Assembly (NCBI GenBank): GCA_000165425.1
Contig: CT868096.1
Span: 62,001 to 126,000, forward strand
DNA length: 64,000 nt
Direction of reading: 5' to 3'
Source of the DNA: Paramecium tetraurelia
Taxonomy: Eukaryota
Of this stretch, positions 16,739-21,766 are shown in pieces; position 1 is the stretch's first letter, and every line of letters starts with the position of its first letter. The translations under genes were made by a program, and so were the position numbers. The notes below the pieces were generated by a model. That model was not told where the DNA came from, made no database searches, and was given only the letters and a program-made list of their open reading frames with translations.

Positions 16739-18419
16739 ATGGAAATTGAAAAATGGAAAACCCAATGCAGGTACCTTTAGAATGAATTGGATTCAATGAA
16801 ATAACAACTATCAGATGCCAAAGACTTAATAAGATTAAATAAGGAATAATTGAAAATCTGTTATAATCCATAATCATTTGATTAGAGTAGCGAATGTAAG
16901 GCTGCATTGGTGTTGCTAAAATACGTCTAAGAAGAAAACGAAGTCTTATTGAAAAAGATTGATCAATTAAGTGATGAAAGAAACCTAGCATTCGATAAAG
17001 TAAAACCAGTATTTAATGCGCATCTAGGCCTTTATTTCTGACCAAATCAACGAATCGAATCAAAGAATGGAATCGTCGCTGATTACTAGTCTCAATAAAA
17101 CAATTACCGAATTAAAAAAGAAATTAAACGAATAGGTGTAGATGTCAAATGAAATGATGGGAACAATCTATTTAGAAAAACATGTACTTTCGAAAATTAT
17201 ATACTTTAGTTGACCCAACCAGATTAGTTGACTTTAAATTTTAATAATGTTATTTAATAAATGAATTCAATGCTATTAAAATAGAAATTACAAATGGAGG
17301 AGTTAGTTGAATAAAAAAACGATTTAGCATAACTTAATTTTAGTTTATCCAACGAAATTTTGAAAATTAGAACTCAAAGATTCACTCCCCGTAATCAAAC
17401 TAAAACATTCTGTATTTATTGAAAATATCTTTAATATAGTTAGCCAGCATGAAGATCCATCGAAATTCATTAATAATTTAGTACAATGTAAGAATTCATC
17501 CCTATTATTTAGTATAAAAGAGATTATTTTTTGATGATGATTCGCAAGATGAAAAAATGCACATGCAATAATCGGCTGTCTTTTCTCCTCTTTTCTCCCC
17601 GTCATTACCGCAAAAAGTAAAACGATAGTAAAAGTAACAAATACCAAAAGACTTCAAGCAAGAACCAGAAAAATACATACCAAAACTTGACTTAACTAAA
17701 GCTTAGCAAATCTAATAATTCAATATCAAAAGAATGCAGCTACTAGCTAATAAATTGGCAAATGAAGGCGTTGAATAGAAAATTTTTATGTAATTGTGCA
17801 AATCTATATGTCTAGGTTATAAGATGAATTGTTAAGAACTAAAAATAAGTATCATGCATAATTAGTGTTGAATTAACAGCTGGATTTATAATTGACGGAG
17901 TTGAACCTTTAAATTATGGAATTGTAAAATGTTAATGAAACATTGATCAAATCAAACCAAATATACGAAGAAAAATGGTCAAGCATCTTCTAATAGTTTT
18001 CATTCTATAAGGAGTTCTATCTAAAACACAAAGATTAGATTTAGCATAACTTATAATCATATGCTACTTCAGATGATCAACAATAGTTCAGTGTATTTGA
18101 GTTTGAAAAAGCATTGAACTCCTCTAAGATTTACAAAAAGAATACCACTCAAAAGAATCCCTCAAACAATAATCCTGCTCTTAGTATCATCAACTATTAG
18201 GATGATACTATTCAATAATCATCTTATAGGCTTCCGACTGACAGGTAAGAAGAAGCAAATAAATTCTTAACTTAATAGTATAAATGTTGTTTAATGATGA
18301 TGGCAAAAGAAGTTATCTCTTTGGATTGCCAACATGTTAAGCCTGTTTAGACTGAACACAATAAAGTGAAAATAAAAAGAAGCTACAGCAACACTATTGA
18401 GTATTTTCCTGTTTTCTGA
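16739..18419 (+). CDS. Hypothetical coiled-coil protein
   Basis: MEIEKWKTQC...; IPKLDLTKAQQIQ segment; several tiny introns (middle exons not fully resolved); TGA at 18417-18419. Confidence 0.65.
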
Positions 18420-18510
18420 TACCCCATAAGTTTATGTGTCTTATCATAGTTCTACCCAATTAATTCAAAAAGATATAAAATTAAAGTATTATTATTATTG
18501 CAATTTATTA

Positions 18511-19992
18511 ATGACCGATTAAGAGCCACACATACTATGCTTTAATATCAAGGCTACCAAAGAATAAGCGATTAGCATATCTGTTCTCTACACCATTACT
18601 TTGAGTTTATTTTTTGGATCACTATTTGTTTTTCTTTGGACTCAAAGAACTAACATTATACTGAAGGAGAGGAGCTGTTACATTCTAATTATACAAGCGA
18701 TCACTACATACGGATTTGTAGTTTTATATCCGATGGCTGTGCTATCTTCATAAAATTATGTATATGATGACATCAGCTTTTATACAATAATATTGTATTA
18801 TTTAAAATGTTATAAGTTTTATAGCTTAATTTAAATACATTCCAATTTTATGCTATTTGTTGAGGGCCTGCAGATTTTTTTATGCTTTTCAAAGGCCATG
18901 GAAACTATTTAAGCTTTAGGGACTTAATTTTATAATAGCAATGGCTATCTGTTGTATTTCAATAGGATTACTTGAAGCATACACACAATTCGACCAAAAC
19001 ATATTCCAATAGAATGACTCTGAATACAACATCTAAAGAATTATGCCGAGAATGGCATTTGTGTATATCTCACAACTCATCTTGATTCTTGCAATATTTT
19101 TCATGAGAAAAGTTAATGTAAGATATACAGAATTATATTTTAGAAATTTCAATAGTTCGATTATTGGATAGCATTTGCAATTGAACTAATTCAGTTCCTA
19201 ATTAAAATAGTGTTGAGGAATAAGTTTAACTTTATTGATTGCAGTCCATCTCACAAAATTCCATTGTATTACTACATTGATTGCTTCAAATTGTCTTTGA
19301 TGTTATTGTGTTCAACAATCCTACCTTTGTTCTTTTAACATAAATCAATAACAGAATTACCCTTTGAAATGGAATGCTCAACTTTTAGATTGTTTCTAGC
19401 CTAACCGTAATTTATAGAACTATTTTATGAATACTTATGTTATTTTGATAGAACAAAAACCTAAAAATTAATTATGGAAGAATCTCAACACACATAAACA
19501 AACCTCAGAATCAATAATAATTACACAAGTCTATTTGAAAACGAGACTTAATTTAACATCCTCAAATCCTCATTATCAAAATGCTTCATTTCCTATATAA
19601 ATTTTTCATTGTGGCTTGAGAAGGAATAAAACGAGTCTAATGCTGATAATGATAATGAACATTTATTGAGTTCTGAATTTCAATTTATTTAAGACCTCAT
19701 CTCTGAATAGAATGTACCCAAAATGCCCTCCACTTAAAAATACAATAAGTAACTTGCTAATTAAGGTATAAATGATTCAGGCAGATTGGATTTCACTCAA
19801 GATCAAATCAATATCAATAAAGTTGAAAAAATTTGGTTGTACAAAGAGATTCTTTATGAAATTTTAAAAGAAGTGTTTGAACAACATTTCAAATACACTA
19901 ATTCTTACTAGACATTGTATGAACATTGCGAAAGAAATAGAATAATATGGATCAGGCTAGGATAAATTGGATTGACTGGGAATAGTAATTGA
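18511..19992 (+). CDS. 7TM protein with C-terminal RGS-like domain (7TM-RGS-like)
   Basis: Seven hydrophobic segments with ILKERSCYILII and CYLLRACRFFYAF; cytosolic tail begins FRLFLAQPQFIELFYEYL and ends LYEILKEVFEQHFKYTNSYQTL; two introns. Confidence 0.65.
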
Positions 19993-20334
19993 GTTTCAAA
20001 GCTTGTTTGTCATTTTCATATATTATAATTGAAGTATTCGTAATATCATTTTCGTTTTTACATAAAACTCCTTGTGTGAGCTATCATATAAAACAATCTC
20101 CAATATTAATTAATATTAATTTTTGAATTTTCAGATTTTACTAAAAATTATTCTAATATATATGAATAGAGCTAGGCTTTTCCTCTTAACTTTAAAAACA
20201 AAATTGTTGTTCAATTTAGATTACCAAAGTTTCTAAACTGAAGAATTATTTTAGAATCCAAGCATTCCAATTATAAACAAAAAAAAAATTCAATTAAGAT
20301 TTCAATTTTAAGTTAAATTACTGTAAAATAAGAA

Positions 20335-21766
20335 TGCTTGAATAAACTGAGATAGATAAACAAAAAAAGTTTGAACACATAGGTAAGCTAATTTATTGTT
20401 GTTTTTTCTGTATGCTCTGTTATTCGTTTTAGATTGCAGGGAAGAACATAACATACAACATTTATAACTAAGTATGTGATTTTGAGAAAGAATTTTTTAG
20501 GCTAACTTAACTTTTATTTATCCAATGCAATTCGGAATCAGCCACTTTATCTCTCCATTTGCTCTACTTTTTGTGGATGCCATCATATCAAATTTCAGGA
20601 TGGGTTTTGTAATTTATTTAGGAACCTTTAATGCATTTACATATTTATTAGGTGCATTAATGGTTGCATCTTGCACTGAAGATGAGTTTTTTTTTTGCAA
20701 TGTACGACTTACGTATTAATTAGTCCTACACATTGACAATTACGATAGGAATTGAGACCTTTTTTGGAGGAATTGCCAATTGTATATTCTATGTTTCATA
20801 TGCAGTGTATGCAAACTCATTAACTAATTCCTATAATAAATAGTTATACTTAGGAATAGCATATTCTATACTGTCAACTTGTTAAGTCTTAGGGAATACA
20901 ATAGGTAATAGTTTTTTCATTTTAGGATTCTTTTTTTCTAGTAAGGTCTCCATTTTTCATTACTACTTGATTTTAGTTATAGCCATTCTGATTATCTAAG
21001 TCTTTTTGCTATTTGTAAAGGATATAAGACCGAAAAATGAACGAAAAAAAATAATATTTGGATAATTAATAAAGCAATAATTAAATTAACTCAGAATAGC
21101 ATTTTCTTATCCTAAATTTTAATCCTTAATCCCATACACACTATTTTCCTCAATGGTACATAATAGTTACATCATGTTAGCTCTAAGGCTGTTATTTCAA
21201 TGTACTTCCAGTGCTTTTAAAGGGAGTTTTGGGAAAAACGGATAACCAAAAATCATTTATTATGTTCTTCTTTGGAGGAGTAGGATCTCTATTAGGAGGC
21301 TTTGTAAGTGGAAGGATTGGACATTGGACTAGTTTATTTAATGTAGCATGGTTTCAAACATTCCTAGTTGGCCTATTTTGTGTTTAATCTTTCTTTTCTT
21401 ATGCTGATAAGATTTTAATCATGACCTATTCAAGTGGATTCAATTTAGGATTATCATATTCAGGATTGGAAGCATTGCATGCAATGATGATTGCAAAGTT
21501 AATAAATAAGGAAAACTACTATTATGTTGCCAATAGTGCTGTTAGTGTAGAATTATAAATATTATAATTAGAGTCTAGCATCGACTATCTTATCCCTTGT
21601 GTTTATTTTTTTAAGTAAAACCACATTTATGTATTTCCTGTACTTTATGTTATTGTTGATTTTCTTAAATGTAGCATTTCTGGTGATTTCATAAAGGCGG
21701 TTCTCAAACATCAAACAAGTAAGCCTTATCAATACAGAATAATCAGATTCATAAACTAAGGAATGA
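20335..21766 (+). CDS. Major facilitator superfamily-like (possibly UNC-93-like) multi-pass membrane transporter
   Basis: Many hydrophobic helices in two blocks; GSLLGGFVSGRIGHW resembles an MFS loop motif; multiple tiny introns; start approximate. Confidence 0.7.

Follow-up and report, generated by a model that had tools for sequence, protein, structure and literature searches.

How do the seven-helix receptors of Paramecium signal? The chemosensory behaviour of this ciliate is well studied, yet G-alpha and RGS proteins are absent from it in genome surveys (de Mendoza 2014). In Table S1 of that Pfam-based survey both P. tetraurelia and T. thermophila score zero for G-alpha, G-gamma, RGS and RGS-like proteins; G-beta is described there as the only heterotrimeric subunit of ciliophorans, and many bikonts as possessing 7TM-RGS proteins. 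Antibody and toxin hints of ciliate G proteins have been summarised (Lampert et al. 2011), and an annotated RGS-domain gene, SteCoe_31006, is reported from Stentor (PMC13291615), so that RGS is not absent from the phylum. Within the window, the 64,000-nucleotide stretch of DNA analysed here, an earlier note had described a gene at positions 18511–19992 as a 7TM-RGS-like receptor of a ciliate, a group in which, as far as its author knew, canonical G-alpha is not clearly identified. Applied to Paramecium, the latter statement agrees with the G-alpha count of zero in the survey table; the former raises the question of what this gene encodes, and whether the tail of its product is an RGS domain.

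The gene lies on the + strand of the window, which is P. tetraurelia macronuclear DNA, and corresponds to GSPATT00000608001 (A0CJD0). Its product is named "transmembrane protein" in the database, and nothing more, and no mention of the GSPATT00000608001 identifier was found in the text-searchable literature. Under the ciliate code the span 18511–19992 fits the gene exactly, since 18511 is the first ATG, also the first within the transcribed region, and 19990–19992 is a TGA stop. The reading frame shifts twice between these positions, and the gene therefore has introns. All the strings quoted in the earlier note were recovered in the translation, including FRLFLAQPQFIELFYEYL and LYEILKEVFEQHFKYTNSYQTL from the tail, but the protein is not encoded in a single open frame and requires three exons separated by two tiny introns. 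The derived model has a spliced coding sequence of 1434 nt and encodes 477 amino acids with a single terminal stop. It is identical at 458 of 477 positions (96%) to the P. octaurelia protein P0010, also 477 residues long, with zero gaps in the alignment.

Exon 1 (18511–18794, + strand) carries the start codon, a putatively extracellular N-terminus with a conserved LCFN motif, TM1, a loop with the sequence K-E-R-S, TM2 and the beginning of TM3. Its translation is kept in P. octaurelia, P. pentaurelia, P. sonneborni and P. bursaria, as well as in a short protein fragment (P0007). Exon 2 (18817–19117, + strand) encodes the rest of TM3, which ends in YLLRACRF, followed by the basic loop 2, TM4, a loop with an FDxNIF motif, TM5 and the residues MRK. 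Intron 2 (19118–19143, + strand; 26 nt, GTAAGA..TTTTAG) has to be removed to maintain the frame, in accordance with all homologues. Exon 3 (19144–19992, + strand) translates into a sequence 100% identical to CAK70897, XP_001438294 and A0CJD0; its first part (19144–19332) encodes TM6, the third predicted extracellular loop and TM7 (PLYYYIDC...), and the remainder the tail. A third candidate intron (19917–19940, 24 nt, GTATGA..AATAG) was rejected: it is coding in all homologues and retained in the spanning transcript contig, in which there are only two gaps, of 56 nt in total.

The gene is weakly expressed. Stranded oligo-dT RNA-seq reads from all three P. tetraurelia runs covered the region from about 18492 to 20027 at roughly 2–5x, and the first mate always mapped to the minus strand, as fits an mRNA transcribed from the + strand. 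One transcript contig, from the run designated X3, is 1626 nt long, matches positions 18300–19980 with zero mismatches and lacks the 26 nt of intron 2, as predicted.

At the junction between exons 1 and 2, two acceptors occur in tandem, 8 nt apart: a weak upstream AAG at 18816 and a strong downstream TAG at 18824. They define introns of 22 nt (18795–18816, + strand, GTA..AAG) and 30 nt (18795–18824, + strand, GTA..TAG), both within the 18–33 nt size range described for Paramecium introns, for which TAG is reported as the stronger acceptor (PMC8997360). Splicing of the 22-nt form, which is demanded by the conserved protein and was not seen in RNA, creates the junction TIIFFIAQFKY, the same as that of P0010 (YYTIIFFIAQFKY), and this junction is collinear without gaps with VVFFLAFTKF of P. 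bursaria. The X3 contig, the sole transcript contig that spans intron 1, lacks 30 nt and not 22 nt (depth 10/10). Splicing of the 30-nt form breaks the seven-helix frame and leaves two possible ORFs, one of 144 aa that begins at the first AUG and one of 392 aa that begins at the fourth, the latter with the same start as the P. sonneborni gene model P0005 (MTSAFIQ.SSQFKY).

These observations could mean that the P. tetraurelia gene no longer yields a seven-helix protein. Intron 1 would then normally be spliced at the strong TAG acceptor, as in the X3 contig, and the mRNA would encode a protein of 341–392 aa devoid of TM1 and TM2 or else only an N-terminal fragment of 144 aa, in which case nonsense-mediated decay would probably remove it. 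The longer of these products recalls the public P. tetraurelia model, 341 aa long, which begins with MAICCIS inside TM4 and misses exon 1 and most of exon 2 (TM1–3; 18511–18940). It also recalls P0005, whose start is that of the 30-nt form read from an internal AUG. Besides, four of the five other Paramecium gene models disagree at the intron 1 junction, which is solved differently in the P. pentaurelia model of 463 aa and in each of the P. sonneborni models of 452 and 388 aa. However, the translation of TM1 and TM2 is kept throughout the genus, P. bursaria and fragment P0007 included, which would be unexpected for untranslated sequence, and the 392-aa ORF begins only at the fourth AUG of the mRNA. 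The weight of the X3 contig is limited as well, since assembled contigs retain the commoner path and lose rarer variants, the depth of raw reads at the junction is 0–1, too low for an isoform ratio, and the cells behind the run may not have been wild-type. Moreover, weakly expressed Paramecium genes are those in which alternative splice sites are reported to be used most often (PMC5663052). Loss of the seven-helix product in P. tetraurelia thus appears improbable to us.

We favour the 22-nt intron as the probable functional form, because the protein sequence encoded by exon 1 is maintained throughout the genus, because only the 22-nt junction equals that of P. octaurelia and aligns without gaps with that of P. 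bursaria, and because in the 30-nt form the frame opened by the first AUG runs into a premature stop. Since the 30-nt intron is the one used in the only contig spanning the junction, it is from conservation, and not from RNA, that we infer the synthesis of the 477-aa protein in P. tetraurelia. A combination of 30-nt splicing with a programmed +1 frameshift was also considered and discarded: the resulting junction would be 3 residues shorter than that of P. bursaria, whereas that of the 22-nt form is collinear with it without gaps. By comparison with the derived model, the public 341-aa model is evidently truncated at its N-terminus, and this correction, together with the conflict of the sister-species models at the same junction, is a by-product of the present analysis.

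A census of the family, proposed in the earlier note, found it in Paramecium alone. When 1.84 billion representative proteins were searched with a profile, 5 matched at E<=0.001, namely the cluster of the aurelia complex, P. bursaria (E 1.6e-39) and three short fragments. In a set of 5.8 billion proteins the family was found only in P. tetraurelia, P. octaurelia, P. pentaurelia, P. sonneborni (two copies) and P. bursaria, and querying this set with alignments up to E<=10 revealed nothing beyond the same 5 Paramecium proteins. Similarly, none of the 171 pattern matches from a scan of metagenomes for relatives was confirmed by tblastn. P. tetraurelia has a single copy in the databases searched. 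The family therefore appears confined to the genus Paramecium, as far as HMMER can see.

Hydropathy analysis revealed seven hydrophobic segments in the window protein and, independently, in its P. bursaria orthologue P0006, which is only 29% identical, in line with the seven helices counted in the earlier note; the K-x-R-S after TM1, present as K-E-R-S, and the YLLRACRF at the end of TM3 were likewise where it had placed them. Lysines and arginines number 3, 5 and 3 in loops 1, 3 and 5, versus 0 and 1 in loops 2 and 4. According to the positive-inside rule, this distribution would place the N-terminus outside the cell and the 219-aa tail in the cytoplasm, and we thus infer an N-out/C-in topology for the 477-aa protein.

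In a comparison of predicted structures, the shape of this half of the protein resembles that of a G protein-coupled receptor. The family is represented in the ESM Atlas by P0010, with a model of residues 1–262 (overall pLDDT 0.56). This model superposes on models of class-A GPCRs over 225–250 residues with TM scores of 0.59–0.64 by query, values that can arise between unrelated seven-helix bundles and may mean a shared seven-helix arrangement only. Nine of the ten structure rows listed are clusters of the 7tm_1 type or of related GPCRs. Among the matches by language-model features, the best score, 0.93, belongs to a fungal cluster, and ranks 2 and 3, also fungal (0.88–0.89), carry 7tm_3; by the tool's own statement, structure and language-model features count as one source of evidence. 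At the sequence level, no Pfam GPCR or 7TM family was matched at E<=10 by the three exon translations or by the six full-length or fragment proteins. The protein shares its seven helices and its predicted N-out/C-in topology with both class A and class C GPCRs (7tm_1, 7tm_3). In contrast to them it has no evident DRY or NPxxY motifs, and neither class has an equivalent of its long structured tail.

The absence of a sequence match to GPCR families, the low expression and the lineage-specific distribution might also be expected of a membrane protein with seven helices but a function other than that of a receptor, for example in trafficking, scaffolding or transport at an internal membrane; its GPCR shape would then reflect a common helical arrangement of the kind that can bring TM scores near 0.6 between unrelated bundles. 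Set against this are the predominance of GPCR-type entries among the Atlas structure rows and the 7tm_3 annotation of the second and third feature matches. The basic R..R where TM3 meets the cytoplasm and the conserved N-terminus, putatively extracellular and containing Cys, are receptor-like features that count against it as well. We regard a non-receptor function as very unlikely.

The tail of 219 aa is predicted to be helical and its conservation is bipartite. Block A (residues 259–300; 19333–19458, + strand) contains LPFEM and the pattern F.LFL..PQFI..F..YL.Y.D and is 40% identical to its P. bursaria counterpart. Block D (residues 421–477 and the TGA stop; 19819–19992, + strand), which is also covered by fragment P0009, reads W..KEI..L+-VFE..F.KT.SY..L...C..N..IW.RL, with 37% identity to P. 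bursaria. Between the two blocks lies a variable, N/Q-rich middle (residues 301–420; 19459–19818, + strand), which contains CFISYINFSLWLE and SEFQFIQDLIS and shows 10–20% identity to P. bursaria. An AlphaFold model of the tail alone, built from six sequences, has seven helices at low confidence (pLDDT 44.3, pTM 0.40); the whole protein, modelled from four sequences, reached a pLDDT of 36.

The RGS fold consists of nine helices, of which the first and the last pack together, and RGS domains contact G-alpha through the E/N of the ENLxFW region and the Asn of the alpha5–alpha6 loop. The earlier note had likened the two ends of the tail to the first and last RGS helices, a likeness to a consensus that was reproduced by none of the tools used; it had also noted, correctly, the lack of an evident EN-x-x-F motif and the presence of a long insertion. 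The profile of the RGS family, PF00615, matched none of the three exon translations, six full-length or fragment proteins and six tails at E<=10, although a remote RGS homology could escape, since most matches weaker than about E 0.1 are discarded by the HMMER filters. Neither the whole-protein profile nor the tail profile matched any PDB chain at E<=10. With the tail model as query, Foldseek returned a best E of 1.2, with no RGS among the 50 matches listed, and VIA-align against 48,161 chains returned generic helical bundles with a best Z of 7.5, below the tool's helical noise level, again with no RGS among the matches listed. As the pLDDT of the tail model is 44, RGS entries missing from these lists are no evidence of different folds. 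The ESM Atlas, queried with residues 262–477, gave no usable feature match, and its structure rows did not exceed a TM score of 0.34. The checks that the earlier note had proposed for the tail, PF00615 and Foldseek, thus gave no RGS signal in tests of low power: given the poor models and the HMMER filters, these negative results carry little weight. The 7TM half of the receptor proposed in the earlier note is upheld by the seven helices and the GPCR-like superposition, while its RGS half is without a signal in weak tests, and the RGS nature of the tail is unconfirmed.

One result of the Atlas bears on this point from the side of the 7TM half. A cluster named "RGS domain-containing protein", with 54 members, commonest in Ciliophora and annotated with PF00615 in 22% of cases, appears at rank 17 with a score of 0.81 and 167 shared features. 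Its likeness to the Paramecium protein is by language-model features only and below the tool's 0.9 bar, and HMMER does not link the two families; it is therefore a lead only.

A true but highly diverged 7TM-RGS protein, whose tail would be an RGS fold with two long insertions, is an unlikely reading of these data. The protein would be a remnant of a ciliate family whose G-alpha substrate was lost in the Paramecium/Tetrahymena lineage, and its tail would now bind another partner or be decaying in its middle, the part that binds G-alpha. Four collinear blocks of the tail (F..LFL......LF..YL, N..xW..E, F.F....IS and L..VFE..F..T.SY..L) resemble, by our own comparison, the RGS consensus, and follow its order and in part its spacing. 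The seven helices of the tail model are compatible with this reading, as are the conservation of the two ends of the tail only, the ciliate cluster of the Atlas, as a weak lead, and the RGS-domain gene annotated in Stentor. It is weakened by the middle of the tail, where the candidate counterpart of the RGS ENLxFW region, SYINFSLW, is only 20% identical in P. bursaria, its W being replaced by I, and where the ININK stretch is not conserved in P. bursaria either.

A more specific history of this kind would make the tail a relic: a 7TM-RGS receptor of ancestral ciliates would have persisted after G-alpha was lost, keeping blocks A and D as a packed pair while the G-alpha-binding middle dissolved into an N/Q-rich spacer, and would have been re-used with a different partner. 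We consider this scenario unlikely. The protein does share the outline of the plant-type 7TM-RGS receptors (Arabidopsis RGS1 and its protist counterparts), in which seven transmembrane helices precede a helical domain of about 200 residues on the cytoplasmic side. The Paramecium protein differs from them in that its tail has no RGS detectable with Pfam, PDB profiles or fold search, in that none of them was matched by sequence among the 1.84 billion representatives, and in that its host genome has no recognised G-alpha in Table S1 of de Mendoza (2014).

Another comparison is that with the ciliate GPCR "bigrams" such as GPCR-PIPK, which, like the Paramecium protein, combine a 7TM region and a cytoplasmic domain on one chain, an arrangement reported to allow G-protein-free signalling by the effector domain (PMC5784254). 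The tail studied here is no kinase and shows no match to a known domain, and inspection of the sequence revealed no LRxGI motif, given for GPCR-PIPK in the same source. The published catalogue of ciliate GPCRs is described as selecting by known domains (Luo et al. 2023), and the present protein, having none, is probably outside it.

Taken together, these results describe a real, transcribed, orphan receptor-like gene, restricted to the genus and endowed with a conserved bipartite tail. We propose, with a confidence slightly above even, that its 477-aa product is a Paramecium-specific, GPCR-shaped seven-helix protein and most likely a G-protein-independent sensor or receptor that would signal by recruiting a partner to its tail. 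With a short N-terminus predicted outside the cell and the 219-aa alpha-helical tail in the cytoplasm, the heptahelical bundle would change conformation and pass the signal to the tail, where the block following TM7 and the C-terminal 57 residues may jointly form a surface that recruits a cytosolic partner, the N/Q-rich middle acting as a variable spacer. RGS homology is left out of this explanation because it is unsupported by any test.

A genus-specific receptor-shaped protein with its own conserved cytoplasmic module is a concrete candidate for G-protein-independent signalling. If the tail were a decayed RGS domain, the protein would show what happened to a 7TM-RGS receptor whose G protein was lost, and provide a natural example of what becomes of a GTPase-accelerating receptor once the GTPase is gone. 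At present it belongs to a large body of lineage-specific membrane proteins that are uncharacterised, and its importance is accordingly modest.

Two further ORFs flank the gene on the + strand, at 17808–18419 and 20334–21407, and neither matched a Pfam family at E<=0.01. The downstream one contains many hydrophobic stretches and probably introns, and no RNA reads were seen at 20092–20200. The upstream one encodes a Q-rich protein of 203 aa and ends about 90 nt before the ATG of the seven-helix gene; it is covered at about 18–31x, several times the level of the latter, and the X3 contig spans both genes. In its 3' part, a C>T change at 18352 occurs in 6 of 30 reads of the run X21 but in none of the 19 and 23 reads of the other two runs, and may be a polymorphism or an error.
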